Of a stretch of DNA of 60,219 nucleotides, positions 13,816 through 47,491 are shown piece by piece (position 1 is the first letter of the stretch; every line of letters begins with the position of its first letter). Made by a program: the position numbers and the translations under genes. Under the pieces are notes generated by a model. That model saw only the letters and a program-made list of their open reading frames with translations. It ran no database searches and was not told where the DNA came from. The stretch lies in the NCBI GenBank assembly GCA_964511315.1, contig CAZEFF010000007.1, positions 1 through 60,219 of the forward strand. The letters run 5' to 3'. The stretch is from an uncultured bacterium. GTDB lineage: Bacteria > Omnitrophota > Omnitrophia > Omnitrophales > Aquincolibacteriaceae.

Positions 13816-13821
13816 GCGGAT

Positions 13822-15315: not shown

Positions 15316-15322
15316 TCTAAGC

Positions 15323-17597
<2,275 letters not shown>

Positions 17598-19776: not shown

Positions 19777-19787
19777 GGCAAGCGCGC

Positions 19788-21038: not shown

Positions 21039-21056
21039 AACAGTGAAAAGCCGCTT

Positions 21057-21536: not shown

Positions 21537-22228
21537 TGAAAATTTTATCTGTCCAGCTCCGGGTTCAGAGGCAAAACGGCTTTACTCTTCTTGAAACCCT
21601 TCTTGCGATTACGCTTTTCGCGATTGTGATTAGTTCCAGTTATGGAATTTTTAGTATGGGGATTCAGATTTGGAAAAGATCCCAAGGCCGCTCTTTGGTC
21701 GAGCGTAAGGCGACGCTTGCCTTGGAGCGCATGGGGCAGGATGTGAGGAATGCAATCTTTACGGTATCAAGCGGTGAGGCGGGGCTATCACAAGCTGAGC
21801 CCGAATTTAGCGGAAATGAAAAGTCTTTTAGTTTTCCCGCGATAGTGGCCGCTTCGGATAAAAAAGGCCGCGTCATGAATCAATATGGCGCTGTCATTTA
21901 TGAATGGAATAGTGGGGGAGACCTATGCCGGCGGGCAAAGTCAGCCACCGACTTATATTTAAGGAGGGATTCGGAATGCCGTGTTTTGGCGCAGGGGATT
22001 AAGAAGCTAAAATTCGAATATTTGCTCTATCAAAGGATTACGAAAAGTTTGTCTTGGTATAATAGCTGGGACTTGAAGGATGGAATGCCTCAGGCAGTGC
22101 GCGTGAATTTGGAGCTCGAAGAAAAAATGAAAGGCGAGCGCAGAGGAATCGTTAAGAAGTATCAAAGGACTTTTCTCGTCCCGGTCGCTGAAAACCCCGT
22201 GAATGACGGGGGAGGCGAGAATGTTTAA
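21533..22228 (+). CDS. Minor pseudopilin, GspJ-like
   Basis: G|FTLLETLL motif; position between the I-like and K-like genes. Confidence 0.75.
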   Translation: MMKILSVQLRVQRQNGFTLLETLLAITLFAIVISSSYGIFSMGIQIWKRSQGRSLVERKATLALERMGQDVRNAIFTVSSGEAGLSQAEPEFSGNEKSFSFPAIVAASDKKGRVMNQYGAVIYEWNSGGDLCRRAKSATDLYLRRDSECRVLAQGIKKLKFEYLLYQRITKSLSWYNSWDLKDGMPQAVRVNLELEEKMKGERRGIVKKYQRTFLVPVAENPVNDGGGENV

Positions 22229-26616: not shown

Positions 26617-26818
26617 ATCTTTCTCCAGGGCCTATTATTTTTACGTTAAAGAAGTTTAATTCTTTACGGCAAAATTATATCATAGACTTTATTCGGGTTA
26701 AAGCTTTGAGCAGGAATAAGTTAGGAAAGCTTAGGGTTAAGCTTTAGGGGGCGCGGGCCGATAATTTGGAAGGCCATTTAAGCATGAAATTAGCCGGCCT
26801 AAGCAGTTGAAAGGGCTT

Positions 26819-28048: not shown

Positions 28049-30042
28049 TGACCGACACGCAAATTACGCCCGTTGCTCAAGCACAGCCCGTTTTTTCACG
28101 GTCCTCGTCTGATTCCCAGCGGTATGAACTAACTCTCTCTGATTATTGGCGCATTCTGATTAAGCGCCGCATGATTATCATTGTCTCGTTTATCATGATT
28201 TTGATCGCGTCCATTGTATATACCAATGGGAAGACACCCATGTATGAAGCTGGATCCGAAGTCCGGATTTCAATGGGGCCGCGCGCTTTCCAATATGATG
28301 GCGGAATGTTTGTCCCGCAAAATACTCTGCCCGTTTACGCAAGCATGGTTACGAGTGATGAGGTTGTCCAAAGGGTAGTGATCAAGCTCGGTCTTTTAGG
28401 GCCGGACGCGACAGCTCAAGACTTAGCAGACAAAGCGGCTGAAATAAGAGGTGCTATCTCAACCGGAACGGATGATATTAATAATTCCATAAGTATTTCA
28501 GTCGTGTATCCAAACCCTGAGCTTGCTGCCGCGATCGCGAATCAAACAGCGCAAGTTTTCATCGAAGTGGATTTGCTGGAAAAAACGAAGCAAGCCCGTA
28601 AGCTGCGGGGTTTTATCGAGGAGCAGCTCAGTAATTTTACAAAAAAACTTCAATCGACCGAAGATAAGATGCGCGAATTCCGTCAGTCAGGAAGGGCTTT
28701 GGGCATCGCGGCGGGGATGGAACAGCGTCTTTCGGATCTTGAAAAAGATAAAAATATTTTGCTTAAGCAATTCACCGAAAAACATCCTGATGTGATAAAA
28801 ATTAACGCGCAAATTGAAAATATCCGCGAGCGAATTCGTAAATTGCCATCCGATGAATTGGAGCTGGCCCGTCTTCAGCGGGAAATGGAGCTGAATGACC
28901 GCGCGTACCGGGCGATGAAAGATAAATATGAGTCGGCACGCCTCGCCGAAGCGGAAAAGGTAAGTGACGCGACAATTGTGGCGACGGCAGCTGTTCCCAC
29001 CGTTCCAATTTCGCCTCAGAAAACCTTAAACAAACTAACAGGCGCGGCCGTTGGGCTGATTGTCGGAATCATTCTTGCATTTGTGAATGAGAATATGGAT
29101 ACATCCATCGGAACAATTGAAGACGTCGAAAAAATTGTCAGATTGCCCGTGATCGGCATCATTCCTTATTTTGAGAGAAATGAAAATCAGGATTTGCCTT
29201 GGTGGAGGTTTGATAAAACGCTATTTGGGTTTTTATCGATCAAAAGGGACATGCCTCCGGACGGATCATTTTTAATTATGAATCAAGACACGCTTTCAAG
29301 TTTGTCTGAGTCCTACCGCATTTTACGTACCTTTGTGGAATTCATCGTCGGACGTAAAGAGGGGGAAGGTAAGATTCTTGTGCTGACAAGTACAGGGCCG
29401 CAGGAAGGTAAAACGCTTACAACCTGTAATCTCGCGATCGCGCTGGCCCAAGCGGGTAAAAAAACACTTCTTATTGATGCGGATCTTCGCCGCCCGACAT
29501 TGCATCGTCTTTTTGGATTATCCCGCTCGCCGGGTTTGACGGATTTGCTTTTGGGAACCTCAACGTTTGAAGAAACGCGCCGAACGATGGGAGACATTCT
29601 CGTTGGAGATACTTCGCAATGGGATCATGTTTTAACATCCCGAATGCTTGACCGCCTTGAAATCCTAACATCGGGTACGCATACTACGACTCCCGCAGAG
29701 CTTTTGGAGTCAGACTCAATGAAGCGTTTGCTTGAGCGGGCAAAGCAGGAATATGCCTATGTGCTGGTGGATACACCGCCGGTTCTTCCAGTAACTGATG
29801 CGAGGACTTTGGGAATTATCGCGGATTCAGTATTCTTTGTTTACCGCTCGGGTAAGACTGCCCGCCGCGCCCTGACCCGCGCTAAAGATGAATTGGCGCT
29901 TGCCGGCGTAAAAGTTAAGGGAATTATCCTTAACCAAGCCACGCCTGAAACTACCCTCACGGACGCTTATTACTATCAGTATTACGGTGAGAAGAAGGCG
30001 TCCAAGAAAGCAGCCTCGGAACAAGTTTCGGACAAAAAATAA
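28048..30042 (+). CDS. wzc: Polysaccharide co-polymerase/BY-kinase Wzc
   Basis: Two TMs around a coiled coil; Walker A STGPQEGKT, IDADLRRP, VDTPP, C-terminal Tyr cluster DAYYYQYY. Confidence 0.93.
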   Translation: MTDTQITPVAQAQPVFSRSSSDSQRYELTLSDYWRILIKRRMIIIVSFIMILIASIVYTNGKTPMYEAGSEVRISMGPRAFQYDGGMFVPQNTLPVYASMVTSDEVVQRVVIKLGLLGPDATAQDLADKAAEIRGAISTGTDDINNSISISVVYPNPELAAAIANQTAQVFIEVDLLEKTKQARKLRGFIEEQLSNFTKKLQSTEDKMREFRQSGRALGIAAGMEQRLSDLEKDKNILLKQFTEKHPDVIKINAQIENIRERIRKLPSDELELARLQREMELNDRAYRAMKDKYESARLAEAEKVSDATIVATAAVPTVPISPQKTLNKLTGAAVGLIVGIILAFVNENMDTSIGTIEDVEKIVRLPVIGIIPYFERNENQDLPWWRFDKTLFGFLSIKRDMPPDGSFLIMNQDTLSSLSESYRILRTFVEFIVGRKEGEGKILVLTSTGPQEGKTLTTCNLAIALAQAGKKTLLIDADLRRPTLHRLFGLSRSPGLTDLLLGTSTFEETRRTMGDILVGDTSQWDHVLTSRMLDRLEILTSGTHTTTPAELLESDSMKRLLERAKQEYAYVLVDTPPVLPVTDARTLGIIADSVFFVYRSGKTARRALTRAKDELALAGVKVKGIILNQATPETTLTDAYYYQYYGEKKASKKAASEQVSDKK

Positions 30043-30104
30043 CACCCTCCTTTTTAAATAGCGGTATTTAGCACTGCCCCCGAACAACAATATTTTTCTT
30101 CACT

Positions 30105-30809
30105 TTGATCCTTAATGCCGAGATAATCAGCACTATGTCAAAGAATGGTCTCATTCAGCTTTCCATGCACCGGCCCTTAAAAGTCTGTTCGCCAGGATTG
30201 CTCCGCAAAGCTAAAGCGCATTTTAAAAAGTATGACTTTCTTAAGCTCCCCAAATTCTTTTCTGAACATACGCTTTCATTTATAAAAAATACGCTTCCAA
30301 AAGCTTCGTTTGAACATAAGCGGCACAAAGGGATCGCGACCGAGCTTTGCATGAAAACAAATCTGCTGATGGGGATTTTGACTTATCTGGTGAATGATTA
30401 TGAGCTGTTCCGGTGGATCCAAGAGGTTACGGGAAGCAGACCCCTTGGATGCTTTACCGGAAGGGTTTACAGAATGAAACCGGGTGATCATTATGACAGC
30501 TGGCATGACGACTGGCGCTATGGCCGAAAGATTGCGCTGAGCGTTAATTTCAGCGAAGAGATTTATGAGGGCGGCTGCCTCATGTTGAGGCATAAAAAGA
30601 GGCCCAAGCATATTGTCCATGTCACTAATGCAGGATTTGGTGACGCGATTATTTTTCGTTTGGGGGCTGAATTGGAGCATCAGGTTTCCGGTTTGAAAGG
30701 GACCGCGGCAAAAACCGCATACGCGGGATGGTTCCGCAGTTATCCGGATTATTTTAAAAATGTCAAAAAAATAAAAATTATCCCGTCAAAGTTTACCGCA
30801 AAGCGATGA
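30105..30809 (+). CDS. 2-oxoglutarate/Fe(II)-dependent oxygenase (prolyl-hydroxylase-like)
   Basis: HxD (WHDD) ... distal His (EHQV), YEGGCL, terminal GWF; start uncertain (TTG 30105). Confidence 0.75.
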   Translation: MILNAEIISTMSKNGLIQLSMHRPLKVCSPGLLRKAKAHFKKYDFLKLPKFFSEHTLSFIKNTLPKASFEHKRHKGIATELCMKTNLLMGILTYLVNDYELFRWIQEVTGSRPLGCFTGRVYRMKPGDHYDSWHDDWRYGRKIALSVNFSEEIYEGGCLMLRHKKRPKHIVHVTNAGFGDAIIFRLGAELEHQVSGLKGTAAKTAYAGWFRSYPDYFKNVKKIKIIPSKFTAKR

Positions 30810-32074
30810 CTCTTTTTTTGGTTTTTCTCCTCGCGCTGATTCCCCGTGCAATTTATTTATTTTTGTTTACGGATCTAACCATTAATCCAGGTTGGAGTGC
30901 TCATTGGAACTTGGCCACCGGGATTTTGAAATATGGAACTTACGGTTATCACGGAGAACGCGTTACTAATATTGAACCGGGATATTCCTTTTTTCTGGCG
31001 TTGGCGCGGGGCCTATTTCAGGAGCGGTTGACCGGTGTTCTGCTTCTTCAGGTTGTTGTTGCTGCACTTGGCGCGGTAGGGCTCTTCCTTTTAGCTATGG
31101 AGCTCTTTGGCAGCCGTAAGACTGCTTGGATAAGCGCCTCCTTATATGCCTTCTATCCCTATTTAATTGGACAGTCTGTCTCTTTGATTGAAGTGCCCAT
31201 TTTTATGACTTGCCTGATAGGCGCGGTTTATTTTTATGTTAAAGCGGATAAAGAAGCAAAGGAGACTGTTCTCGGAGGTGTTTTAACAGGAATGGCTTTT
31301 GGGGTCACGATCCTCGTTCGGAGTATGGTTTTGCCGGCCGCAGCCGTGTGTTTCTGTTTGTTCGCGATCAAAAGGAAGATGCTAACCTTTGTTTTCTCTT
31401 TACTGGCATTCTTAATTGTGGCGGGGCCATGGTTTTCGCGAAGCCACAGTGTTGACGGTTCCTGGATTCCGCCAAGAGGAGGATGGAATTTTCTACAGGG
31501 TAATTGCCCGTATTCCGATAAAATTATTCCTCAGTATAATCCTGATTTGCTCGATGCTTATGTCTCCGAACTTTTAGAAAAAGAAAGGCCGGATTTAATT
31601 AAAGTAGAAAGAGAAACAGACGCCGCTGAATCCGACCGATTTTTTAAAGAGAAGGCTTTTTCATTTATAAAAGAACATCCGTGGCGGACGGCTTTGCTGA
31701 AATTTAAAAATATTCTGTATTTGTTTTATCCTCGGATTGTTCCATTTAAATCCATGAATGAAAACACGCGGATCCATTTCCTGGGGCCTGAAGAATTTGA
31801 GGTTGAAAATATTCCAAACCGCGGGATTTGGCGGGAATTATCTTATAGTCTCACGTATACGCCTATTTTTTTATTAGGTCTTGGCGGGCTTTATTTAAGG
31901 AGAAAAGAAATTTGGCAAAACTTGGTTTTTTATGCAGTTATGATTAACTTTACGGCCGTTTACGCCCTTTGCTGGCCTGCTACGCGGCTGAGGGTCCCTA
32001 TGGATTTTATTTTCATGCTGTTTGCTGCTTACACATTAAGCGTATGGAACAAAAAAAACTGCCCGGCGGATTGA
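30806..32074 (+). CDS. GT-C fold (ArnT/PMT-like) membrane glycosyltransferase
   Basis: Multiple TMs, IEPGYSFFL loop, YAFYPYLI, RLRVP near the C-terminus. Confidence 0.65.
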   Translation: MTLFLVFLLALIPRAIYLFLFTDLTINPGWSAHWNLATGILKYGTYGYHGERVTNIEPGYSFFLALARGLFQERLTGVLLLQVVVAALGAVGLFLLAMELFGSRKTAWISASLYAFYPYLIGQSVSLIEVPIFMTCLIGAVYFYVKADKEAKETVLGGVLTGMAFGVTILVRSMVLPAAAVCFCLFAIKRKMLTFVFSLLAFLIVAGPWFSRSHSVDGSWIPPRGGWNFLQGNCPYSDKIIPQYNPDLLDAYVSELLEKERPDLIKVERETDAAESDRFFKEKAFSFIKEHPWRTALLKFKNILYLFYPRIVPFKSMNENTRIHFLGPEEFEVENIPNRGIWRELSYSLTYTPIFLLGLGGLYLRRKEIWQNLVFYAVMINFTAVYALCWPATRLRVPMDFIFMLFAAYTLSVWNKKNCPAD

Positions 32075-32760
32075 CCTGCTTTTTCCCTTGTTTTAATGAT
32101 GCCCGCACTATCACGGGGCTTGTTAAGAAGGCTGCGTCCGCGGCTGAAAGGAATGCGCCTGATTTTGAAGTGCTTGTTGTTGATGATGGGAGCAGCGATG
32201 GGAGCCGTGAGATTCTTAGAGCATTAGCTCGGGAGCACGCTTATTTGCGCGTTATTTTTCATGAGAAGAATCTTGGGTATGGCGCCGCTCTGCGCTCGGG
32301 ATTTCGGCATGCTTCAAAAGAATTTATCTTTTATACGGATGGAGACGGACAGTATGACCCGTTAGAACTTGAAAAACTTATTCCGCTCATGACCGGAAAA
32401 GTTGATCTTGTGAATGGGTATAAGTTGACCCGTGAAGATTCCTTGATAAGAATAGTCTTAGGGAATATTTACGCGACGATTGTCCGGAATGTTTTTTCTC
32501 TAACTATTAAAGATCCTGATTGCGACTTCAGGCTCTTTCGACGGGCGGCTTTGCCGGCAGAGCTTAAATGCTCCAGCGGGGCTGTTTGTGTTGAACTCGT
32601 GAAGATGATTCAAAGCGGGGGCGGGGATACCGCGCAATGCCCAGTGAGTCATTTTGGGAGAGAATTTGGGCGGTCTCAGTTTTTTAATTTATATTCAATT
32701 TTCCGCACTTTTCGTGAGCTTGTCGCGCTGAGGAGAAATTTGACGGTGTATGGAGGATAA
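32044..32760 (+). CDS. GT2 glycosyltransferase (polyprenol-phosphate sugar synthase-like)
   Basis: FFPCFND, VVDDGSSDGS, NLGYGAAL, YTDGDGQYD, DPDCDFRL; start moved to ATG 32044. Confidence 0.88.
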   Translation: MEQKKLPGGLTCFFPCFNDARTITGLVKKAASAAERNAPDFEVLVVDDGSSDGSREILRALAREHAYLRVIFHEKNLGYGAALRSGFRHASKEFIFYTDGDGQYDPLELEKLIPLMTGKVDLVNGYKLTREDSLIRIVLGNIYATIVRNVFSLTIKDPDCDFRLFRRAALPAELKCSSGAVCVELVKMIQSGGGDTAQCPVSHFGREFGRSQFFNLYSIFRTFRELVALRRNLTVYGG

Positions 32761-33502
32761 CGAATACCAGGCAATGTATATGTGCGAGGATTCGCATTGG
32801 TGGTATGACGGACTGCGCCGGATATGGAGCCAGTCATTACGGGGCCATGTCCCAGAATGTTCCGGCTTTCGGATTGCGGATATTGGGTGCGGAACTGGGG
32901 GCAATATTGCATCTGCCGTGCGTGAACTATCAGCAAAAATGGTGGGCGTTGACGCGAGTCCTCTAGCAATTTCCCTCGCCTCACGCAGGCCGGAATGCGG
33001 CATGATCGCTCAGGCCAGAGCGGAAAGCTTGCCGTTTCGATCTCAGCTGTTTGACGCCGTGCTTTCAACGGATGTGCTGTATATCCGGGGGATCGATGAA
33101 AAAAAAGCGCTTCGAGAAATGTACAGAATCTTAAGGCCGGGCGGTCTTTTGTTGATCAACTTACCCGCATTTGAATGTTTACGGGGACGGCATGACCAAA
33201 AAGTACATACACAAAAGCGATATGAAAAGACCGCGCTTACGGCTTTATTACATGATTCAGGATTTAATATCGTTAAAATGAGTTACTGGAACTTTTTTCT
33301 TTTTCCGCTGGTTTATCTTCAAAGGAAATGCTCCGTTATTTTTTCCAAAAATAAAACCGCCGCCGCTTCAGATGTTAAGCTGCCGGGTCATTTGATGAAT
33401 CGGTTTTTAAAAAATCTCTTAACGATGGAAAGATTCTTTTTTTTAAAAACAGGACTTCCTTGGGGCAGTTCGATATTTGCTATCGCGCAAAAACCCGCTT
33501 AA
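32750..33502 (+). CDS. Class I SAM-dependent methyltransferase
   Basis: ADIGCGTGG, GVDAS, AESLPF, RILRPGG. Confidence 0.88.
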   Translation: MEDNEYQAMYMCEDSHWWYDGLRRIWSQSLRGHVPECSGFRIADIGCGTGGNIASAVRELSAKMVGVDASPLAISLASRRPECGMIAQARAESLPFRSQLFDAVLSTDVLYIRGIDEKKALREMYRILRPGGLLLINLPAFECLRGRHDQKVHTQKRYEKTALTALLHDSGFNIVKMSYWNFFLFPLVYLQRKCSVIFSKNKTAAASDVKLPGHLMNRFLKNLLTMERFFFLKTGLPWGSSIFAIAQKPA

Positions 33503-34424
33503 TATCTTTTTGCAGTTTTTTCTGGAGCAGCCCAATTTTTTTTAAATCCATTGGATATGAAACTGCCCGGATAGGGATTCGCTGAACAAGTTTAGAAGTA
33601 AAGCGCAGTTGTTGCTGAAGTCGTGCTGAATCCTGCAATACTAAATTGTGGGAAGATTTAATCAGGGCAATAACGCTGTCTTTTGGCTTCAGATTTTTAA
33701 TCCTAATGGAACCGCCCGTTTTGAAGCGGGGCCAGAGTACATAGATTAACCCTACCCGAATGCTTTTTCGGCTCATATCGCCAGGTTTAAGGCGGAAAAT
33801 CAATTTTTTCGCGATAGGGCTCATTTTGCCCGCGGGAACAATGTGTTTAAGAAATTTTTTAGCCGGCGTAGGCCATAGCTTGATTTGCGGTACTCCTGGC
33901 GGTGTCCAAAATGAACCAGACCGCTTTTGAATAGCAAAAATGTCATCTGTTAACAGATCAAATTTTTCCCGAAAAAAACACGCGGCTAATGTCGATTTCC
34001 CATAGCCAGATTCTCCCAGAAACGCGACCGCTTTATCTTCAAACTTGACCGCGGAAGCATGGAAAGCCTCATAGCCGAGCTTAATTAAACTGAAGGATAG
34101 AACATTTGTTTGTAAAAAGATAATGGGAGGGACGTGAGGGGCGGCGGCATTTTGTTTTGAAGGAATTTTCTCATGAAATATAAGGCGGCCGTTTTTTGAA
34201 ACCCAGAAACGCAAGCGGTCAAAAAACCGGATATAAACGCTTCCATCGTCTAGCAGCTGATAGTCAATCGGATGCTCCGAAAATTGCGCTCCCGACTTTA
34301 AAATAAGCTTATGAAAAAAACGGGAGGGAGCCCTTCGGATTGAGATTTGGGGATATTTCGCTTTTACCAGGGGAGCGTTAAGCTTAAGGTCGCTCTTAAC
34401 GGGTAAACCATAAAGTTGATACAA
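33480..34424 (-). CDS. HPr-kinase-like lasso peptide kinase
   Basis: FHASAV (conserved His), Walker A GESGYGKST, LLTDD; immediately downstream of the precursor; TTG start. Confidence 0.82.
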   Translation of the reverse strand: MYQLYGLPVKSDLKLNAPLVKAKYPQISIRRAPSRFFHKLILKSGAQFSEHPIDYQLLDDGSVYIRFFDRLRFWVSKNGRLIFHEKIPSKQNAAAPHVPPIIFLQTNVLSFSLIKLGYEAFHASAVKFEDKAVAFLGESGYGKSTLAACFFREKFDLLTDDIFAIQKRSGSFWTPPGVPQIKLWPTPAKKFLKHIVPAGKMSPIAKKLIFRLKPGDMSRKSIRVGLIYVLWPRFKTGGSIRIKNLKPKDSVIALIKSSHNLVLQDSARLQQQLRFTSKLVQRIPIRAVSYPMDLKKIGLLQKKLQKDIKRVFAR

Positions 34425-34437
34425 GCAAAACGGTGCC

Positions 34438-34590
34438 TTAGGTTGTTCCTGACCGGGTTTTGTTGGCTACCGCGGTACTGCCAAGATCATTTGCCCGAGT
34501 CCGTGTTCCAAGGGTCAGTTTTTTGAATGAACCGTATTTAATCAGGCTAGGCGAATTGTACTTCTTTTTCGAGTTCTTTTTTTCCTTCAT
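34438..34590 (-). CDS. Lasso peptide precursor, 50 aa: MKEKKNSKKKYNSPSLIKYGSFKKLTL / GTRTRANDLGSTAVANKTRSGTT
   Basis: Hand-translated and absent from the ORF track. GGAG 6 nt before ATG; exact YxxPxLxxxGxxxxxT leader; Thr at -2, Gly at +1, Asp at +8; sits between cyclase and kinase. Confidence 0.92.
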   Translation of the reverse strand: MKEKKNSKKKYNSPSLIKYGSFKKLTLGTRTRANDLGSTAVANKTRSGTT

Positions 34591-36445
34591 GAAAAGCTCC
34601 TTGATTGAATTGTTGAAGCATGTAATCGGTAGAGATTAAAAACCAAAGTTCAAAGCGCCAATCTTTATTACCAGCAAGATATTCATCGGCCAGCCGTTTG
34701 ACTCGATCCAAGCTTGCGTATTTTTGCATCATTCCTGAGCGGTTACAAAGAACCTCAGGATTTTCTCGGTTAAGCAGCAAATGAAGCGCTTGGTCAGTTT
34801 CTAAAGTGCAATTCCCTTTATCTTTGCGCGAGACAATACTGTCCGGAACAACACCCTTCATGGCTTCTTTGAGAATGAGTTTCCTTGTGCCGCTTGCCCT
34901 AAGCTCCCAGGGCAGAGAGAGCATGAATTGAATGAGACGGCTGTCAAAGAAGGGGCAGCGCAATTCAATGCCATATAGCCCCCAAGCGCGTTCATCTAGC
35001 TCAAGCTTCATGACTTGATAAGGGCGGGTTACCTCAAAATAAGTTGCCGCTTGGCTGTATGATTTGAATCGCGGGCGCTTATCGGAGCGTAGAACACGGG
35101 ATTTGAAGCCCATTTTATGAATGGTGTTTCGATTTAGCCAGCGGGCGGGAACAGTTCCCGCAAGTCCGCGCCGGAGATTCAAAAGACTTTCAGGGATCAT
35201 TTGGAGAATCGATTCTCTCATGTAATCTAAGGGGTTATCATTGAATTCATCAGAGAATGATTTTGATTTGAGAATGAACTCAGGAATTCTAAAATGCGCG
35301 AGGAGATCGGCCCCAAATCCAAATTCATCCAGCACTTGATCTCCGCCTTCTCCGTTTATCGCGACGCGAATTCCCCGGTTTTGAAGGAATTCATACGGCT
35401 CTAGATTCCGGCTTACGTTAATCATGGGCGCTTCTACATTATTTAGAAATGATCCTAAGCCTGAAATGAAATCACGAGTTTTTCCGAAAAGCGCGTGCAT
35501 GGGAATGCCGGCTGCTTCTGCGACGATGCGCGCGTATTTGCGCTCATCCGCGAGAGGATCATCAGAGTAAAGGTTTACTGCCTCGATTTTCGGCGCGGAG
35601 GATGATTTTTTGAGATGAGCTGCAGCGGTTGAAACGATCGCTGAAGAGTCATGCCCGCCGCTAAGGAAAGCCGCCATATTGGTCCTGGAACGAAGTCTGC
35701 ACTGTACGGCTTTATCAAAAATCCTTTTAAACTGCTCGATGTATTCATTCGGGTTCTTAAACTGCAATTGAGTTTCAAGATCCCACGATGCGTAGCGCTC
35801 AACCTTCAGTTTACCTTCCTTTAGAGTAAGACAATGGGAAGGCGCTAGGCGGTTAACTTTGTCAAAAAAGGTCCGTGTATGGTCTTCGTCTTTAAAGTTT
35901 CTGAATGAAAGAAAAGATAGAATCATTTCATCGTCAAAAGAGGGTGTGCCGCCCAAGACTTTGAGAAGGGGTTTTATTTCTGAGGCGAAATAAAAATTAT
36001 GGCCATCCCAAATATAATTAAAAGGTTTGAGACCGACTCGGTCGCGCCCCGCAAAAAGCAGATTTTCCTCCTGATCCCAAAGGGCAAAAGCAAATTCGCC
36101 GATTAGATGCTTAAGGCAATCTTTGCCCCAGAGTTTGTAGGCGTGAATAAAAACATCGGTGTCAGGTGCCGAGATAAGAGCAGGGAAGTGAATAAGCAAA
36201 TCTTCACGATTATCGATCCGGCCGTCCCAGACGAGTTTAAACCGATCCTTCATTAGTGAAGTGACAGGGGCTTCATTTTCTGACTCAGGGGTGGTTTTTA
36301 ATAGGCATGAGCCTAAAGCGATTTTATTTTCAGTCCAGAAGGCTTTGCCGTCAGGCCCGCGGTGAATCATGCTTTCAATCATGGATTCTATAACAGGAAT
36401 TTCAATCGAAGAATGGGAACGATAAATGCCAGCGATGCCGCTCAT
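34547..36445 (-). CDS. Lasso cyclase (asparagine-synthetase-like), copy 2
   Basis: MSGIAG (catalytic Cys2 of AsnB replaced), SGGHDSS PP-loop, GEGGDQ, CPFFDSRL; AGGAGGT RBS. Confidence 0.88.
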   Translation of the reverse strand: MSGIAGIYRSHSSIEIPVIESMIESMIHRGPDGKAFWTENKIALGSCLLKTTPESENEAPVTSLMKDRFKLVWDGRIDNREDLLIHFPALISAPDTDVFIHAYKLWGKDCLKHLIGEFAFALWDQEENLLFAGRDRVGLKPFNYIWDGHNFYFASEIKPLLKVLGGTPSFDDEMILSFLSFRNFKDEDHTRTFFDKVNRLAPSHCLTLKEGKLKVERYASWDLETQLQFKNPNEYIEQFKRIFDKAVQCRLRSRTNMAAFLSGGHDSSAIVSTAAAHLKKSSSAPKIEAVNLYSDDPLADERKYARIVAEAAGIPMHALFGKTRDFISGLGSFLNNVEAPMINVSRNLEPYEFLQNRGIRVAINGEGGDQVLDEFGFGADLLAHFRIPEFILKSKSFSDEFNDNPLDYMRESILQMIPESLLNLRRGLAGTVPARWLNRNTIHKMGFKSRVLRSDKRPRFKSYSQAATYFEVTRPYQVMKLELDERAWGLYGIELRCPFFDSRLIQFMLSLPWELRASGTRKLILKEAMKGVVPDSIVSRKDKGNCTLETDQALHLLLNRENPEVLCNRSGMMQKYASLDRVKRLADEYLAGNKDWRFELWFLISTDYMLQQFNQGAFHEGKKELEKEVQFA

Positions 36446-36482
36446 GAAATACCTCCTGAATACGTTGATTGATTAGAGTTAA

Positions 36483-36511
36483 ATTATATCGTCCGCTATA
36501 GTTAAAGTCAT
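36483..36511 (-). promoter_or_regulatory. Candidate internal sigma70 promoter for cyclase 2 - precursor - kinase
   Basis: On the minus strand: ATGACT (36511-36506), 17 nt, TATAAT (36488-36483), then AGGAGGT before ATG 36445. Confidence 0.5.
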
Positions 36512-38235
36512 TAAGAAAAACGGTTTCCCCAATGAAGTTCAAGCCAGTTGGCTAGACGAACTAAACGCCATAGGAGAGGGTAGTTATGAAACCGGAGTTG
36601 AGGGTTTAAAAGCTGCTTTTTTAATACCTCATAATCCACATAATCATAAATTAAGCGCTTTGAATTGGATAAATATTGGGCAATCACGGGCAACTCGAGT
36701 TTTATTCGCGCCGCGCGGTCTTTGAAAGGAATATAAGCGCGTTCATCATCCTTGATCCTCGTGGGGATTGGCATGATAGAGGCAAGGGCTTGCTGGATGA
36801 AATTTTTCCTGTAACCGCCTTCCATCTTTATTTCGACGGGAATAGATAAGAAAAATTCAATCAATGGAAGGTCCAAAAAGGGATGACGGATACCCATCCC
36901 CTGTGTTTGAGCACCCTCTGCCATTTGGGTTAGATTTATTGGGATGATGGGTTCAAAAAGCGTATGAAATGTTTCGTTCTGCGACAACTTTTTAAAGGGG
37001 CGGAGACGCGTAGGCGGAAGCGGAGCCATTTGTTTTCTAAATTCGGGACGGAGCCAGAGCCGATGATTGATCCGGTTTTGGCGGATTAATTTTCTGATCC
37101 AATAAGGTGTTTTTTCCCGCAGCGTTTCCATGAAAAGCATTGTTTTTACCGAGTTCCCGGAAATGTTCATGCATTCAGCGAGACGTTCACATTCGGATGA
37201 AAATTTTTTTAATTTAAAACCCAAAAGAAGGTCTTCCAAATATCCAAATTCCATTAAATTGCTGTATTCATTAGCCCCATATCCGGTTAAAACCGTTTGG
37301 CAGCCTTTGTCAGCCAATCTTTTGAGAAGCAGAGGAACCGTCAGAAAGGCATCGTAATGCGGAGTGTCGGTAGGCTCTAAATAGACTTCAAATATATTTT
37401 GATGTTCAGAATAATAGTCGATGACATCGAGGGATGGATCAAAGCGTTTCATGAATGCATCCAAAGAAGCTTTGTCTTCTTCCAAAAAACCCTCCGGAAT
37501 GATGCAAACTGAATTTAAAGCGGGCAGGCGCGTATCCTTTTGGCGAAGGGTGTGAGCCATTGAGCCGATTTGAGTTGAGTCCAGACCCCCGCTAAAGAGA
37601 AGGCCTGCCGGCGAATTCCCCTTTATCCGATTGCGAACTGATCTTTCAAATAGCCGGTAAAACTCATCAAGATATTGCTGCTTATTCGGATAAATTTCGA
37701 TCTTGTTTGTATTTGGCGCCCAAAATCGGGTTAGATGAGATTCGCCGTTCACTTGGAATGTGATCGTGTGGGCAGGCGGGACTTGTTTGATGCCCTGAAA
37801 GAATGTGGACTCGTAGTCTAAAAATTCACCCATGAAAAATTGACTGAGCATGGCGGTATTCGGTTTTTTAGAAAGAGAAGATTCTTTGAAAATCTGTTTG
37901 ATGCTGGAGGAAAAGATAGTTTTTTCGGAGTCTTGATAATAAAAGAGCGGTTTGACTCCCAAAGGATCACGGGTAAGAAGCAGCTGGTTGTTTTTTCCGT
38001 CCCAAACAGCTATGGCAAAATCGCCTTGAAGGTGAGATGCGAAAGAAGCTCCCCAAATTTTAAACGCGGTAAGAACGGCTTCCTGATCGTTAGTTGAAGC
38101 TGGGAAGTTTTGGGATTTAAAAATTTTATCGAGTTCTTCGCGGTTATCGATATAGCCATTTAATGAAACGATAATGTCCTGATTTGAAGCTGGAAAAGGC
38201 TTCTCAAAATAAAATGAGCCTTCGAAATTATTCAT
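36511..38235 (-). CDS. Lasso cyclase-like asparagine-synthetase homolog, copy 1
   Basis: No N-terminal Cys; RDPLGVKPLFY, SGGLDST, TGYGANE (D->N), HPFLDLPL. Confidence 0.85.
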   Translation of the reverse strand: MNNFEGSFYFEKPFPASNQDIIVSLNGYIDNREELDKIFKSQNFPASTNDQEAVLTAFKIWGASFASHLQGDFAIAVWDGKNNQLLLTRDPLGVKPLFYYQDSEKTIFSSSIKQIFKESSLSKKPNTAMLSQFFMGEFLDYESTFFQGIKQVPPAHTITFQVNGESHLTRFWAPNTNKIEIYPNKQQYLDEFYRLFERSVRNRIKGNSPAGLLFSGGLDSTQIGSMAHTLRQKDTRLPALNSVCIIPEGFLEEDKASLDAFMKRFDPSLDVIDYYSEHQNIFEVYLEPTDTPHYDAFLTVPLLLKRLADKGCQTVLTGYGANEYSNLMEFGYLEDLLLGFKLKKFSSECERLAECMNISGNSVKTMLFMETLREKTPYWIRKLIRQNRINHRLWLRPEFRKQMAPLPPTRLRPFKKLSQNETFHTLFEPIIPINLTQMAEGAQTQGMGIRHPFLDLPLIEFFLSIPVEIKMEGGYRKNFIQQALASIMPIPTRIKDDERAYIPFKDRAARIKLELPVIAQYLSNSKRLIYDYVDYEVLKKQLLNPQLRFHNYPLLWRLVRLANWLELHWGNRFS

Positions 38236-38660
38236 GACCAGCTGTTTGGGGAGGGCGATAAAACCGAGTAGGCGGCCGATTCGTCATCGATTTCCAGCTG
38301 AATTCCGTCAATCTCAAGCCAGGAATGGGCGCGTAAACCATTATTTTGTCTCACGACGCCCACTCTGAGCGTGGGGGCCTTGCCAAGCTGGCAGAATAGG
38401 CTTCCTAACGCTAAAGTGCGCCGCAGGCATGAAGGCTTCCAGCCTAAACGCCGGTCAACAGCTTCTATGAGACTGATTAGCCTTGTCCGCTTTAGGTTTT
38501 GAAGGGAGGAAAGAAAGAAGGATGGTTTTGACGCAGGTGTCAGACTTTGAAGGCGTTTAAGGATTGCGCTAGATGAGGCTAACCGGATCGAGATATCCGC
38601 CCATATAAGGGAGATCATGGAAACAACAATGGGGTACAGCTCTTCTTTTTTAACCCTCAT
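38232..38660 (-). CDS. Lasso leader peptidase B2 (transglutaminase-like)
   Basis: SCLRRTLAL...RVGV...AHSWLE (Cys/His catalytic pair); start at ATG 38660 preferred, ORF track gives 38687. Confidence 0.88.
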   Translation of the reverse strand: MRVKKEELYPIVVSMISLIWADISIRLASSSAILKRLQSLTPASKPSFFLSSLQNLKRTRLISLIEAVDRRLGWKPSCLRRTLALGSLFCQLGKAPTLRVGVVRQNNGLRAHSWLEIDGIQLEIDDESAAYSVLSPSPNSWS

Positions 38661-38982
38661 GGACCTGAATGAGGCCGTTTTTTTCAAGGTTTGTTATGAA
38701 CTTTAAAAGATCTTCGCGGCAAGTTTTCGGATCAACATCATAATGCTTAAGCAGGTAGTCGGCAATTTTCCCAATCTGCTTTTCCTTTTGCATAATATTC
38801 CAAGTCGCTGTTCCCGTCTCGTCCAAACCAAAGTAAATTCCCGTTTCGATATTCAACAGGACAGCTTCGCCCTGCATTTCACGAAAGAGTATTTGGTCGG
38901 AAAAGGTAATTTTGGAAGATGGGCTTATCGCAGTCATGGAACGAGTATACGGGATTTTATTTTTTACATCAAGGTTTGCCAT
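38650..38982 (-). CDS. PqqD-family RiPP recognition element (lasso B1)
   Basis: EAVLLNIETGIYFGLDETG..TW...YDVD...DLLKFITNLEKNGLI; true start may be ATG 38937. Confidence 0.9.
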   Translation of the reverse strand: MANLDVKNKIPYTRSMTAISPSSKITFSDQILFREMQGEAVLLNIETGIYFGLDETGTATWNIMQKEKQIGKIADYLLKHYDVDPKTCREDLLKFITNLEKNGLIQVHEG

Positions 38983-39037: not shown

Positions 39038-41152
39038 CTATTCGACAGCCATTGAAAGGCCTGAAAATGATAGATGATTATAAAATGAGATGCTTTTAAG
39101 AAGGGCGCTTTTGTAACCGTACCAAATGTCGAAGTTTCGGGCGCCATAAGTCGCATCTTTTTGAAAAAGCTGGGGCAAGCGTTCAATCCAATCGGAAACT
39201 TTTTGCGGGTCACGCCCAAGCTTTTCCCGTAATTTCCAGCCAACGCCCCAATAAAAGTTTTTGCGGTATTTATCCGGGATTCTTTGTTCCGCCTGTTTAA
39301 TTTCATTGATGCGGTCAGAGTAAACATAAATGCTGCCGTATGAATGGTCCAATAAAGAGCTTCCGATGCCTCTGTAATACCAACATTTTTCTTCATCGCT
39401 AAGATTTATAGAAAGGTCGCGAGCTTTTAAAGCTTCTTCGCCGGGAGGAAAGCTTGATCGAGCAACTTTTCCTAGTCCCCAAGCGGCCCAATGCCGAGAA
39501 GCGGGTGATAATTTATTTAAAAAGTCCTGATTTTTTTCGAATTCATCAAACCAGTATCCTTCGAAAAATGTTAAGAAACCTTTGTAGAAATAGGGCCGGT
39601 ATTGAGCCGGAAACCGGCCGTCTTGATTTAAAAGATCTTTCAGGGTGTGCTTTTCCGAGCTTAAGTAATAAAATGCAGAGAATTCGCGCGCTATGAAAGG
39701 CCGGTAATCTTCTGGGATAGTCTCGAATGAATCGGGTAGCCCAAGATGAACATTATTTTCCCACTTGGTTTGGCGAAGTAAAGACCAGAAAAAAATGCGC
39801 CTGTCTCTGGGCGTGAAATAAGAGGCTAGTTTACTGATTTGAGGATATAGATCCTTTGAAGCGTCTAAAAGCTGGAGCCAATCAATTCCCAGTTGGGCAT
39901 AGGAGTAGCCCTTGTATCGAAAACCTTGGCCGAGGGGGGAATTGAAATATAGAGGAGATGGGGCGATCAAACTTAAGGCAACTAGCGACAAAATTAAAAA
40001 TTTTGGAATTCGAGCATTGCCCAATGCGATTCCTAGAAGGATAAAACCAAAAAAATAAATAGGGGTATAGTATCGAAATGTAATCGCGTAGTAATATTTT
40101 TCAGGTATGTCCATTCCGCTCATAGCGTATATGGCGATGAAAACGACGGGGTAGATTAAAAAAAACAAGAGTTTTTGAAAAAATGATTTTTTAATAAAAG
40201 GGCGCTGGATTTTACCTGCTAAAAAAATCCCAATTGCCGTGACGCATAAAATGAAATAGCCGTAGGCTCCAGGAATTCGCAAAAAATGATCCCTTTGCAG
40301 GAATGAAAAGGACCTTGGCAGTGAAAAGAAAATTAACCTTAAAAACCGTTTTAGCATAATAAATACTGAGCACGAAGCGTCATGAAAGAGGAAGGCGCCT
40401 AAAAACTTTAAGCCTTGGTAAGGGTGAATGAGATTGCTAATGTACCAAGGCATCAGCCCGATTACAAAAGCCAATAAAAACAGGAAAGTGCTTTTTGAGA
40501 AAAAATTCTGGGGGCGGACAGCGATCCAAACAATCAGACAAGTTAAGCATGTGATTCCGGTTCCATAAAAAAACCAACAGCCAAATCCGCTTAAAACACC
40601 GAAGATTAGAAGATTGGTGGTCTTCCGGTGTTTCGTGAATAAATAGGCGTAAAAAAAAGATAAAATGCCAATGCTGAAAAGTAGGGCTTCGGAGTGTCCT
40701 GATTGCACCAGAAGGTAATGGGATATCACAATCGGAGGGCAAAAGATGAAGAAAAAAGCGGTCCAAATTGATGCCCGGTCCCCGAAATAACGTTTTACAA
40801 AAAATGAGGAAGTTAATATCGTTGCTATTGAAATTAAGAAAGTAGGGATTTTAAGTGCGAGCAGATTTTGTCCCAACAAAAGAAAGAAGGGAATAATGGC
40901 AAGTCCTAGCACTAAAGACTCGCCGGAGTAAAAATCTAGTTGAAAATTCCAAAACGGACAAGGAGTTCCGCGGATAATTTCCCGTGCGATGGTTCCCATG
41001 GAGAGGTCTTCTTTCCAGGATACGCTTTCAATGGATGTTAAGAGGATTAAAACTCTTGAAATAATAAAAACTGCCAATAAAACAACCAATAGGATGTTAG
41101 TCTTATTAATGGGGGGATGGTATTTGGTAGCGGCGGCGCGATTGATTGGCAT
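39038..41152 (-). CDS. GT-C-fold membrane protein with C-terminal helical repeat domain (paralog, SWxE type)
   Basis: VSWKEDLSMG, FQLDFYSGES, SGHSEA, FRYYTP, YKGYSY, FYWGVGW. Confidence 0.7.
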   Translation of the reverse strand: MPINRAAATKYHPPINKTNILLVVLLAVFIISRVLILLTSIESVSWKEDLSMGTIAREIIRGTPCPFWNFQLDFYSGESLVLGLAIIPFFLLLGQNLLALKIPTFLISIATILTSSFFVKRYFGDRASIWTAFFFIFCPPIVISHYLLVQSGHSEALLFSIGILSFFYAYLFTKHRKTTNLLIFGVLSGFGCWFFYGTGITCLTCLIVWIAVRPQNFFSKSTFLFLLAFVIGLMPWYISNLIHPYQGLKFLGAFLFHDASCSVFIMLKRFLRLIFFSLPRSFSFLQRDHFLRIPGAYGYFILCVTAIGIFLAGKIQRPFIKKSFFQKLLFFLIYPVVFIAIYAMSGMDIPEKYYYAITFRYYTPIYFFGFILLGIALGNARIPKFLILSLVALSLIAPSPLYFNSPLGQGFRYKGYSYAQLGIDWLQLLDASKDLYPQISKLASYFTPRDRRIFFWSLLRQTKWENNVHLGLPDSFETIPEDYRPFIAREFSAFYYLSSEKHTLKDLLNQDGRFPAQYRPYFYKGFLTFFEGYWFDEFEKNQDFLNKLSPASRHWAAWGLGKVARSSFPPGEEALKARDLSINLSDEEKCWYYRGIGSSLLDHSYGSIYVYSDRINEIKQAEQRIPDKYRKNFYWGVGWKLREKLGRDPQKVSDWIERLPQLFQKDATYGARNFDIWYGYKSALLKSISFYNHLSFSGLSMAVE

Positions 41153-41187
41153 TAGATATATATTTTCTCCAGATCTGATTTCCTGGG

Positions 41188-42882
41188 TTAATTTTTTCTT
41201 AGTTCATATTCAAACGACGGCTTACCATAGTCTTCGGCAAAGGCTTTTAGACCATTGAGGCCATAAATCTTCATATTCGAGGGAAAAGTTTCAATCCAAT
41301 CGAGTCCGCGCTTAAGATCTTCACGGTGAATTGCCCAGACTGCTGAGCCAAGCCCTCGGTAAAAAGGGGGGTATTCTTCAGGTGTGAGATTTTTAATTAC
41401 TTTCTGAACCTGACGGTTAAATAAAGTATTGGAGTCCCAAATAACGCGAAGCTGCGCTAATGCGAGGTTTTCAGCCTTGGATTTTGAGCTGGGCGGGTGA
41501 ATCCATTCGCTGTGATAAAGATTAGCGTATAAGTTTTTACTGTCTGCACTCGCCATGCCCCAAAGTAGAAAATAGGCATTCTCCGGATTCCGTTTTGAAA
41601 GCGCACGTGCCAAATCATCATTGGTTTTTACCGCAGGTGAAAAAGTGTGGACCCACTGTGTTCCGACGCGGTAATAGGAATATCCTTTATATTGCTGCGC
41701 TCGGCCGATGGGTTCCTTAAATAGAAGGGATGACTGGCCTAAAAATCCAATCAATAGGCAAAAAATAAGTATTAGGCGGTAAGCCGAAGAGAGCAAAATT
41801 GCCGCCAGGAGTAAGCTAATGAATTGTAGGGGCGCTAGGTACCTGTACCCAATATAGCCAATATCCGCAGCGATATCAAAATAGGACAGTGCGAACATGA
41901 TGACAAAAACTATGGGGAAAATAAGGAGCGGTAGGAGCTTAGCACTTCGGCCCTGCTTAGCGGCGAGGAAAATGATCGGGATATAAGCGATGCAGAAATA
42001 AATCCAAGAGCATATTTTTTCATGAATCCCGAAAGCGGGAAAAAAAGAGAAAGAGTTTGGGAGGTGAAGGAGTAATAGTTTGACAGCTTTTTTTGAGAGA
42101 TAAGCGAGAGAACTAAGGTTTTCAGCGGTTTGCGAAAAATTTGTTAAAGTGAAAGCAAGCCCCTCCATCCGGTAATAAGAAATGTAACTGAACCATGGAG
42201 TGAGCCCGAACACAAGGCCCGCGAAAAAAACAAGAAAAGCGCGGCTGAAAAATGATTTTCTGTCCAAAATCAGCCAGCTAACCATGCAAGTAAGGGTCAT
42301 CATGATATTTTGGTTGAAGAACCAGAAGCCGAATCCAGACAGTACGCCAAATAAAAAAAGATGGGAATTTTTTTTTGCTCCAAACAAGTAGAGATAAAAG
42401 AAATAGAGGCTTCCGAGACTGAAAGCTAAGGCTTCCGCGTGTCCGCTCAAGCCTGCCAAAGAAAACTGAACAAAAGATGGCGGTGCAAAAATTAAAAGCA
42501 GGGCTCCCGCAATTGCTGCCCTCCGGCTGAAATGATTCAGAAGAAAAAAGAAGCTGATAATGAATGTGATTATCGCGAAAATGAGTGATGGGATCTTGAC
42601 AGCTAAAAGCGTCGGCCCAAGCAGCTTCACAAAGGGAACTGCCAGGGCGCCTAAAACGATGGATTCTCCTCCGTATGGATCCATCTGATAATGCCAGAAG
42701 GGAAGGCGGGGGCCTTCAATCCAATCTTTCGCGATAACGCCAAGATCGAGTTCGTCATAATGAGACACTCTTTCAACAGCGGTGAAAACTGGAAGAAGCC
42801 GTGAAAGTGTGAATAATAAAAGGAGCCCTCCAAAAATATAAAAAAGAGGCACTGATTTTTTGGGTTCTGCGTTTGTCTTCAT
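41188..42882 (-). CDS. GT-C-fold membrane protein (paralog, HYDE type)
   Basis: ERVSHYDELDLG, YQMDPYGGES, SGHAEA, GYRYLAP, YKGYSY, FYRGLG; start at ATG 42882 (ATGA overlap). Confidence 0.7.
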   Translation of the reverse strand: MKTNAEPKKSVPLFYIFGGLLLLFTLSRLLPVFTAVERVSHYDELDLGVIAKDWIEGPRLPFWHYQMDPYGGESIVLGALAVPFVKLLGPTLLAVKIPSLIFAIITFIISFFFLLNHFSRRAAIAGALLLIFAPPSFVQFSLAGLSGHAEALAFSLGSLYFFYLYLFGAKKNSHLFLFGVLSGFGFWFFNQNIMMTLTCMVSWLILDRKSFFSRAFLVFFAGLVFGLTPWFSYISYYRMEGLAFTLTNFSQTAENLSSLAYLSKKAVKLLLLHLPNSFSFFPAFGIHEKICSWIYFCIAYIPIIFLAAKQGRSAKLLPLLIFPIVFVIMFALSYFDIAADIGYIGYRYLAPLQFISLLLAAILLSSAYRLILIFCLLIGFLGQSSLLFKEPIGRAQQYKGYSYYRVGTQWVHTFSPAVKTNDDLARALSKRNPENAYFLLWGMASADSKNLYANLYHSEWIHPPSSKSKAENLALAQLRVIWDSNTLFNRQVQKVIKNLTPEEYPPFYRGLGSAVWAIHREDLKRGLDWIETFPSNMKIYGLNGLKAFAEDYGKPSFEYELRKN

Positions 42883-43874
42883 GAGGTTTTGATTTGAAAT
42901 AATCGGCAAAAAGCGTGATACGCGGTTTTCGCGGCAATAACCCAAGGGTGGAGAAAGATCCATGCCCAGTAGCCGGTCTTAGAAGAGATGCCTCGATGAA
43001 TTTCGAGTTCAAGCGGAGAGGGGGCTAGTTTTTCGCGAAGCAGCCGTAATTTGCCTTGAAACCTCGGATACCCAAGCCATGTGAAAAAATAGCTCACCTT
43101 TGGCTGGGGAGCTTCGGTCACTAGACGTTTTAAAAATGAAAACAAGATTTTTCTTCCCGGGGATTTGGGGGTCAGTTCCAAAAGAAAGTCTTCAGGGAGT
43201 TTAGACAGTCCATTTTGAATAGCATAAGAAAGACCGTGGAATAGAAAAGTTTCGAGTTTTAATGATTGTATCTTTTGGGCAATCCTTGTCCAATCTATCA
43301 ATCGACTTTCTTTTTCTAAAAAAACGTTAAGATCCCGGACGAAAGTTGAAGAAAGAACGCCCCTATGGGCGGCCGTGTAAGCTGTGAGATAAATAAACTC
43401 ATCTTCGGGATGCAGCAATTGTATCGGGGCCCCCCGAAAAGGGTGACGGATCGAATTCTTCCAAATGCCGGCGGTCTCTTTAGAGTTTATGAAATACCAG
43501 AAATCCCAAATGATGTCGAGATTGATGCTACGGTCGGCATTTACATAAGTTAATCCCTCATCTGGTTCACGTATCAATCCCTTTTTTTCAAAAAAAGCCA
43601 TAACTTTTCGAATGTCTTTTGATTGTATAAGAAGATCCATGTCTGCCATAGAGCGCATTCCAGCGGAAGGATAAGCCCGGATTAAAAGGCTTGCGCCTTT
43701 GAGGGGGATTATCGGAATTTCAGCTTCATTCAGTTCCCGGGATAACTGGGCAAGATATTCAAGCTGAAAATGATTTCTCTTTGTGGTTTTTTCGAACTGA
43801 TTGAGAAAAAGATCAAAAGCCTCAATGCTGTTACTATCGGCTAAGGGCTGATTCGCGGAAGAAGAGGCTGTCAT
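42879..43874 (-). CDS. Nucleotidyltransferase (NTP_transf_5-like, lasso-cluster type)
   Basis: IPLKGASL...YP...RSMADMDLLI; first gene of the minus-strand block. Confidence 0.82.
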   Translation of the reverse strand: MTASSSANQPLADSNSIEAFDLFLNQFEKTTKRNHFQLEYLAQLSRELNEAEIPIIPLKGASLLIRAYPSAGMRSMADMDLLIQSKDIRKVMAFFEKKGLIREPDEGLTYVNADRSINLDIIWDFWYFINSKETAGIWKNSIRHPFRGAPIQLLHPEDEFIYLTAYTAAHRGVLSSTFVRDLNVFLEKESRLIDWTRIAQKIQSLKLETFLFHGLSYAIQNGLSKLPEDFLLELTPKSPGRKILFSFLKRLVTEAPQPKVSYFFTWLGYPRFQGKLRLLREKLAPSPLELEIHRGISSKTGYWAWIFLHPWVIAAKTAYHAFCRLFQIKTS

Positions 43875-43995
43875 TAGAGTTCATCATAGCACGCGGTTTA
43901 TTTTAAAATCAAACAGGAGCTTCATTTATCAGGGGCCTTTGTATATACTAACGAACCATGCGTAATTTTTTCCACTCTCTTTTGATTAGCCCTGT

Positions 43996-47482: not shown

Positions 47483-47491
47483 AGGAGAAAT

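Follow-up and report, generated by a model that had tools for sequence, protein, structure and literature searches.

Why should a lasso peptide gene cluster with a single precursor carry two cyclase homologues in tandem? The question is raised by a 60,219-nucleotide (nt) stretch of DNA from an uncultured bacterium of the Omnitrophota (GenBank assembly GCA_964511315.1, contig CAZEFF010000007.1), called the window here, which encodes a lasso peptide cluster on its minus strand at about 33.5–43.9 kb. An initial annotation, made from the sequence alone, had pointed to two tandem cyclase homologues, C1 and C2, for one precursor, and had proposed that C1 is either a pseudo-enzyme scaffold in a heteromer or a second adenylating enzyme acting elsewhere. 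Two open reading frames (ORFs) resembling asparagine synthetase B (AsnB) do lie in tandem on the minus strand, and a single precursor-like ORF accompanies them. C1 belongs to a family of lasso-cyclase paralogues in which the catalytic lysine is absent from every sequence aligned. We consider it somewhat probable that C1 is a pseudo-cyclase, maintained by selection and partnering C2 and/or the leader peptidase B2, with C2 as the working cyclase. The genes on which the question turns, and their motifs (coordinates of C1 and C2 motifs verified by translation), are:

36511–38235, minus strand: C1, a divergent lasso-cyclase paralogue of 574 amino acids (aa) and candidate pseudo-cyclase (profile matches, AlphaFold2 [AF2] model, Foldseek, clade)
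37576–37593, minus strand: SGGLDS PP-loop of C1, residues 215–220, kept (translation)
37267–37284, minus strand: GYGANE loop of C1, with the Asn322 codon AAT at 37270–37272 (translation)
36742–36744, minus strand: Glu498 codon of C1 at the catalytic-Lys column, equivalent to AsnB K449 and C2 K543 (MAFFT, HHalign, translation)
34547–36445, minus strand: C2, by its motifs a canonical lasso cyclase, 632 aa (profile matches, motif alignment)
35645–35662, minus strand: SGGHDS PP-loop of C2 (translation)
35336–35353, minus strand: GEGGDQ loop of C2, in which Asp369 is the AsnB D351 equivalent (translation, alignment)
34817–34828, minus strand: R540-K-D-K543 of C2, in which K543 is the AsnB K449 equivalent (translation, MAFFT and HHalign)
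34438–34590, minus strand: precursor peptide A, 50 aa (lasso leader model NF033521)

C1 and C2 are 26% identical to each other. Both have the AsnB-like architecture and fold, matching GATase_7 and Asn_synthase without the Cys1 nucleophile, and the best NCBIfam match of both is the lasso cyclase model NF033535 (363.6 bits for C2 and 248.1 bits for C1). Both scores lie under the curated cut-off of 525 bits, which says little about C2 since this model, named lass_lactam_cya, is of the 'exception' type. The XrtA/PEP-CTERM exopolysaccharide (EPS) amidotransferase model TIGR03108 was tried and rejected for both proteins (126.6 bits for C1 and 224.3 bits for C2 against 816.9 bits; no Cys1). In place of Cys1, the N-termini read MSGIAG in C2 and MNNFEG in C1, and the PP-loop motif SGGxDS is kept in both, as SGGHDS and SGGLDS, respectively, which bears out the initial annotation. 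A Cys-less start is normal for lasso cyclases, the AsnB Cys1 column being occupied by Ser in 95 of 113 generic lasso-cyclase homologues. All motifs expected of a lasso cyclase (SGGHDS, GEGGDQ and R540-x-x-K543) are present in C2, which is preceded by its own AGGAGG ribosome-binding site. On these motifs C2 is filed as a lasso cyclase and as the predicted working cyclase of the cluster.

C1 keeps SGGxDS and differs from C2 at two other sites, both of which had been singled out in the initial annotation and were confirmed by translation. The first is the loop that reads GEGGDQ in C2 but GYGANE in C1, where Asn322 of C1 and Asp369 of C2 both align to Asp351 of Escherichia coli AsnB; the alignment of C1 to beta-lactam synthetase (beta-LS) ends at C1 residue 322 and beta-LS residue 351. 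The second is the late motif, R447-Q-K449 in AsnB and R-x-x-K in lasso cyclases, which had been described as poorly matched: C1 has K495-D-D-E498 in the columns where C2 has R540-K-D-K543, MAFFT and HHalign agreeing on this placement, and the equivalent of the K449 column in beta-LS is K443. In AsnB, beta-LS and CarA, the Asp coordinates Mg-ATP and the Lys stabilises the transition state; in beta-LS both K443 and D351 are essential. Lys449 has also been given among the residues of asparagine synthetase B that contact the acyl-adenylate (PMC4659947). C1 is not filed as a lasso cyclase because, of the defining catalytic residues tested, the Mg-binding Asp is replaced by Asn322 and the catalytic Lys by Glu498. 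In addition, relative to C2 and to the deep members of its own family, C1 of the window is short at its N-terminus (38101–38235): some 47 residues of the glutaminase-like domain are missing after the first beta-strand and ahead of the D-x-R-x-D-N-R motif. The ATP synthase beta subunit encoded in the window is 81–89% identical to those of metagenome-assembled genomes of Omnitrophota and of their nearest relatives, which makes a Candidatus Omnitrophota host most likely. The window sequence recurs in wastewater and activated-sludge metagenomes of several studies. An assembly error as the source of the Asn was considered and is ruled out by the identical codon, with zero differences, in contigs from independent runs of these environments (X1 and X3 from one study, X5 from another).

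Are these replacements peculiar to the window? A search with C1 returned a separate block of relatives at E-values of 1e-232 to 1e-78, followed by a drop to generic cyclases at 1e-49, and a search with C2 returned 90 C2 orthologues together with further C1-like partners, whose contigs equal those of C2 matches in length. A 240-sequence alignment has 35 sequences in the C1 group, 91 in the C2 group and 113 generic lasso cyclases. At the AsnB K449 column, none of the 35 C1 sequences has Lys (Glu in 13, Asp in five, Gly in three, Pro and Asn in two each, and other residues), against 89 of 91 in the C2 group and 99 of 113 in the generic group. At the AsnB D351 column, the C1 group is divided (Asp in 18, Asn in 15, Ser in two), whereas Asp stands in all 91 C2 sequences and in 105 of the generic sequences (Asn in seven, Glu in one). 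SGGxDS is invariant throughout the three groups, the one exception being a generic sequence in which Ala stands at AsnB G235, and the Lys equivalent to AsnB K429 is conserved, C1 included.

A profile search, exhaustive over 1.84 billion representatives, placed approximately 21 C1-family representatives in a separate top block at 487 bits or more. The 12 new members among them again lack the Lys (two have Arg), with Asp in six, Asn in five and Thr in one at the D351 column, while the sequences that follow directly after the block (at most 480 bits) have both Asp and Lys in 106 of 121 cases. Lys is thus found at the K449 column in none of 47 C1-family sequences, those that retain the Asp included. 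These residue states are far beyond chance; the same states recur in dozens of orthologues. An alignment-based scan of genome contigs for C1 orthologues gave only generic cyclases at no more than 31% identity, its patterns being too generic, and a single-protein scan of genome contigs gave no matches; the named genomes for the C1 family come from NCBI-sourced proteins only.

The initial annotation had suggested examining whether the Asn is conserved among C1 orthologues. It is, within a defined part of the family: all 17 Asp-less sequences of the first 35 (15 Asn and two Ser) form a single nested subclade in the neighbour-joining (NJ) tree, at 35–60% identity to the window protein. This subclade also has a shortened N-domain, with 0–66 residues, rather than 74, ahead of the AsnB N74 column. 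The remaining 18 sequences keep the Asp and the full MSGIAG N-terminus and lack the Lys. Among 55 positions conserved in generic and C2 cyclases, the deep C1 members keep 46 and the Asn subclade 29. The trait that marks every C1 sequence is thus the absent catalytic Lys, and the change from Asp to Asn and the N-terminal trimming are later steps: the whole family lost the Lys first, and one subclade, to which the window belongs, later exchanged the Mg-binding Asp for Asn or Ser and trimmed its N-domain. The diagnostic for C1 is therefore the absent R-x-x-K lysine and not the Asp-to-Asn change alone, and the family documents a stepwise path to a pseudoenzyme. With the Lys missing in all 47 sequences and Asn or Ser fixed in a subclade, the proposal that C1 is a pseudo-enzyme is supported beyond what the initial annotation could offer, and we regard it as probable that C1 is not a canonical catalyst.

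A separate subgroup of lasso-cyclase homologues from outside the window (P0046, P0051, P0053, P0079, P0085, P0086 and P0098) has G-G-N-E-C and R-R-V-Q-x-D-F; here Asn has independently replaced the same Asp, and Gln the same Lys. On the contig of P0098, a second Asn_synthase gene lies about 7 kb away. Degenerate cyclase paralogues may thus have arisen more than once.

Is C1 then simply a duplicate on its way out? The loss of two catalytic residues, the shortened N-terminus and an evolutionary rate above that of C2 are what a redundant, functionless gene in decay would display, and the initial annotation had allowed for the Asn being a private mutation in such a gene. Mean identity is indeed lower for C1 than for C2 (41.5% vs 47.5%; C1 lower in 97% of 153 comparisons). 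However, the C1 ORF is intact in every locus inspected, in several phyla, and small Omnitrophota genomes still keep the gene. In a set of 32 C1 sequences that are 28–60% identical to C1 of the window, 26 columns are invariant and about 50 are nearly so. Its divergence tracks that of C2 (r = 0.95), and the sequence is identical in independent samples. The AF2 model of C1 is a well-predicted AsnB-like two-domain fold (predicted local distance difference test score 89.3, predicted template modelling score 0.90), and its top Foldseek matches are TsnB9, beta-lactam synthetase, AsnB and CarA (E-values of 5e-25 to 1e-15). C1 is under purifying selection and is not a pseudogene; conservation effectively refutes the idea of a decaying duplicate, to which we give almost no credence, and with it that of a private mutation. 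As to its origin, C1 and C2 are each monophyletic in 60 of 60 NJ bootstraps, and an ancient tandem duplication is plausible.

What, then, is C1 maintained for? The remaining genes of the cluster, which is transcribed from 43874 to 33480 in the order nucleotidyltransferase, two PMT_2-like membrane proteins, B1, B2, C1, C2, precursor A and kinase-like gene, are:

42879–43874, minus strand: NTP_transf_5 nucleotidyltransferase (domain match), a conserved companion of this cluster family by synteny
38650–38982, minus strand: B1, the PqqD-like recognition element for peptides that are synthesized ribosomally and modified post-translationally (RiPPs) (profile matches)
38232–38687, minus strand: B2, the leader peptidase, transglutaminase-like (profile matches)
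33480–34424, minus strand: HprK-related kinase-like protein, a tailoring enzyme of this family of clusters (profile matches), syntenic in loci L001, L003, L005, L006, L008 and L090

We inspected nine loci, namely, the window, L001, L003, L005, L006, L007, L008, L090 and the P0192 locus. C1 lies directly upstream of C2 in all nine; B1 precedes the pair in all nine, as does B2 in all but L007, and the kinase-like gene is present in all eight complete loci. A further 17 C1/C2 pairs were matched in the tables of search results through contigs of identical length. The pairing is found in several phyla: L090 alone carries a phylum in its source name (Rokubacteria), and Acidobacteria and Acidimicrobiia are named as sources of other proteins of the C1 and C2 families. 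With its split B gene and its kinase, the cluster (B1-B2-C1-C2-A-K) is of a family that always has two cyclase homologues. In the window, the B2 stop codon overlaps the C1 start codon (ATGA at 38232–38235), and six of eight loci have a 4-nt overlap between the B2 and C1 frames. The C1 and C2 frames share 4 nt in L005, L008, L090 and the P0192 locus, the four loci whose C1 does not belong to the short-N-terminus subclade, while members of that subclade have a 55–91 nt spacer with its own AGGAGG site ahead of C2. The precursor gene of the window starts within the 3′ end of C2, overlapping it by 44 nt (34547–34590) in a different frame. Comparable overlaps of 25–53 nt were seen in L001, L003, L005 and L006, a hint that translation of C2 may be coupled to that of its substrate.

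Lost catalytic residues, purifying selection and co-encoding with an active paralogue in all loci inspected, the signature of a pseudoenzyme partner, thus come together in C1. In the mechanism that we propose, C2 would adenylate the side chain of core Asp8 and then close the Gly1–Asp8 isopeptide ring. C1, keeping the fold, the ATP-binding PP-loop and the K429-equivalent Lys, would be unable to run canonical adenylation and cyclisation, and may still bind nucleotide because its PP-loop and G-x-G-A-N-E loop are intact. It could serve as a subunit without catalytic activity, produced in stoichiometric amounts with B2 and C2, that holds or pre-folds the basic core peptide or bridges the B2 peptidase and C2. 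We infer the heteromer from two things, the invariable co-occurrence of the genes and the overlapping B2/C1 and C1/C2 reading frames, and on these we put the chance that C1 is a subunit of a putative complex with C2 and/or B2 at about even. A more specific and distinctly tentative version is an obligate heteromeric lasso cyclase in which C1, possibly nucleotide-bound, would grip and pre-thread the basic core and dock B2, leaving C2 to adenylate the peptide and close the ring.

Several observations weigh against the view that C1 is a pseudo-cyclase. Conservation is very strong at its PP-loop, at the G-x-G-A-[D/N]-E loop and at the K429-equivalent Lys, as expected of an active ATP-using enzyme. 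Asn is able to ligate Mg2+, and Arg stands at the K449 column in four of the 47 C1 sequences. The Lys of that column is also missing from about 12% of generic lasso-cyclase homologues, and the role of this Lys in the lasso-cyclase subfamily is an extrapolation from AsnB and beta-LS because the PDB matches of the C1 AF2 model found by Foldseek include no lasso cyclase structure. Finally, C1 and C2 are sister clades in the full NJ tree, as a duplication within this lineage would make them, but with support from only 19 of 60 bootstraps (32%) on a subsample.

The same conservation could mean that C1 is a second active ATP-dependent enzyme of altered chemistry, directed at the carboxylate of the core's C-terminus, which it might amidate, esterify or join to a Lys as a lactam, or at a sugar or phospho-sugar appended by the tailoring enzymes. 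Besides the invariant SGGxDS, G318, G320 and E323 and the retained K429-equivalent Lys, position 322 is held at Asn, rarely Ser, with no free drift, which suggests a loop still in use; the cluster encodes many glycosyltransferases besides a kinase and a nucleotidyltransferase, and a K-T-R motif is conserved in the core tail. Nevertheless, the transition-state Lys is absent from all 47 C1 sequences, often with Asp or Glu in its place, the Mg-binding Asp is missing in about half of them, and the N-terminal domain erodes in the Asn subclade. Nor do the cores agree in their C-terminal residue. C1 also groups with lasso cyclases and not with EPS-type amidotransferases, falling far under the cut-off of the EPS amidotransferase model TIGR03108 (126.6 vs 816.9 bits). 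The other proposal of the initial annotation, a second adenylating enzyme acting elsewhere, is thereby disfavoured by the missing Lys, the eroding N-domain and the grouping with lasso cyclases, and we think it unlikely.

The precursor bears on two further alternatives. That of the window reads KKLTL up to the cleavage site followed by GTRTRANDLGSTAVANKTRSGTT, with Thr at leader position −2, and the predicted core GTRTRANDLGSTAVANKTRSGTT, encoded at 34438–34506, can form a Gly1–Asp8 ring. A leader-motif scan of the window gave 34438–34590 as the only precursor-like ORF, in agreement with the single precursor of the initial annotation. The scan covered the DNA of eight loci, the P0192 locus lying outside it: exactly one precursor was found in each of the seven loci with a leader-motif ORF, and none in the truncated L007. 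A second precursor was accordingly rejected. The seven cores have 21–23 residues, Gly1 and an acidic residue 8, which is the only acidic residue in five of them, and the core is very basic. A K-T-R motif lies approximately 7–9 residues past the ring-forming Asp/Glu8 in six of the seven cores, L005 having K-T-K, with the Thr invariant in all seven. The C-terminal residues are T, A, G, G, G, A and G. With T, A or G in last place, a C-terminal Ser as in paeninodin is probably not the target of the kinase-like enzyme.

A basic core could suit a C1 that acts independently of C2, as a chaperone or a self-immunity factor, recruited from a core-binding cyclase, by which precursor or mature lasso peptide would be sequestered. 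The fold of C1 is kept and well predicted, an acidic patch (K-D-D-E-R) stands at the former Lys site, the core is very basic, and export genes are found in some loci only (ABC transporters in L001, L006 and L090). However, the fixed B2-C1-C2 position and the overlapping frames point to a biosynthetic complex and away from an immunity gene under separate regulation, and the residue at the K449 column is acidic in only about half of the family. We hold this role to be improbable, more so than that of a second enzyme.

The roles of the two proteins might also be reversed or split, C1 being the true ring closer by means of other residues, or each homologue serving a precursor of its own. Both proteins do have the cyclase fold and the PP-loop. 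Yet no conserved lasso-cyclase residue is missing from C2 (by construction, its clade retains all 55 consensus positions), compared with 29 of 55 retained in the Asn subclade of C1, and each of the seven loci with a leader-motif ORF has a single precursor. This alternative is very improbable.

Canonical lasso cyclases such as McjC, FusC and PadeC (NF033535) share with C1 and C2 the AsnB-like two-domain fold without the N-terminal Cys and the SGGxDS motif, and canonical clusters resemble that of the window in placing the cyclase beside B1, B2 and a precursor whose leader has Thr(−2) and whose core has Gly1...Asp/Glu8. At every conserved residue, C2 agrees with these enzymes; unlike them, C1 of the window has no R-x-x-K Lys, no Mg-binding Asp and a shortened N-terminal domain. 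McjC was not recovered by tblastn of plasmids. Whereas the lasso clusters described have one C gene, the window has two cyclase homologues, and no account of paired or obligate C1-C2 cyclases was found in the searchable literature, the 2021 and 2026 reviews included, although a mention in genome-mining supplements is possible. In the wider superfamily, AsnB, beta-LS, carbapenam synthetase and TsnB9 have the fold, the PP-loop, the G-x-G-x-D-E loop and the Lys429/Lys449 positions in common with C1 and C2. Unlike AsnB, neither C1 nor C2 has glutaminase residues, and in C1, unlike AsnB and beta-LS, the D351 position is taken by Asn and the K449 position by Glu.

Dead paralogues that partner an active enzyme are known from other systems, such as the prozyme of trypanosomatid S-adenosylmethionine decarboxylase, and RiPPs offer the non-catalytic E1-like C protein, the partner of the YcaO cyclodehydratase. 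Like C1, these are conserved homologues without catalytic residues that stand beside an active enzyme and evolve in step with it. They belong to enzyme superfamilies other than that of C1, and the likeness would be a functional analogy.

If the obligate C1-C2 heteromer is true, it would be a natural split of 'folding' and 'chemistry', which are fused in every lasso cyclase studied so far. How a lasso cyclase threads its linear peptide before ring closure is a standing question, for which the C1-C2 family would be a natural study system. Substrate holding or threading might prove separable from catalysis, which would be useful for both mechanism and engineering. For genome mining, tools that assume one C gene per cluster mis-annotate C1-C2 loci.

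Among characterized clusters, those of the paeninodin/pseudomycoidin type also have split B1/B2, an HPr-kinase-like gene and an NTP_transf-type gene by the core machinery (PMC8498205), and the cluster of the window resembles them in its split B1/B2, HPr-kinase-like gene and nucleotidyltransferase. They have, however, a single cyclase and a phosphorylated C-terminal Ser, in contrast to the two homologues, the C-terminal T/A/G and the conserved K-T-R of the family described here. The hosts also differ, being Firmicutes for the paeninodin/pseudomycoidin type and Omnitrophota, Acidobacteria and Rokubacteria for the C1-C2 family.

The lasso peptide cluster sits inside a conserved polysaccharide/glycosylation locus (26807–33502 and 39038–52471 of the window; also in L001, L003 and L006). 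This locus encodes Poly_export, a Wzz/GNVR tyrosine-kinase-like protein, a 2-oxoglutarate/Fe(II) oxygenase, GT2, a methyltransferase, six PMT_2-like membrane glycosyltransferases and an AlgX/SGNH-like protein, and the orthologous clusters are flanked by largely the same gene families. Such a setting suggests that the lasso peptide is heavily tailored or tied to envelope or EPS biology. Elsewhere in the window, a giant ORF of at least 3907 aa (5–11728) runs off the window start; after it come an F-type ATP synthase operon, in which subunits b and delta are fused (13069–17597), and type II secretion/type IV pilus genes (18055–24853).

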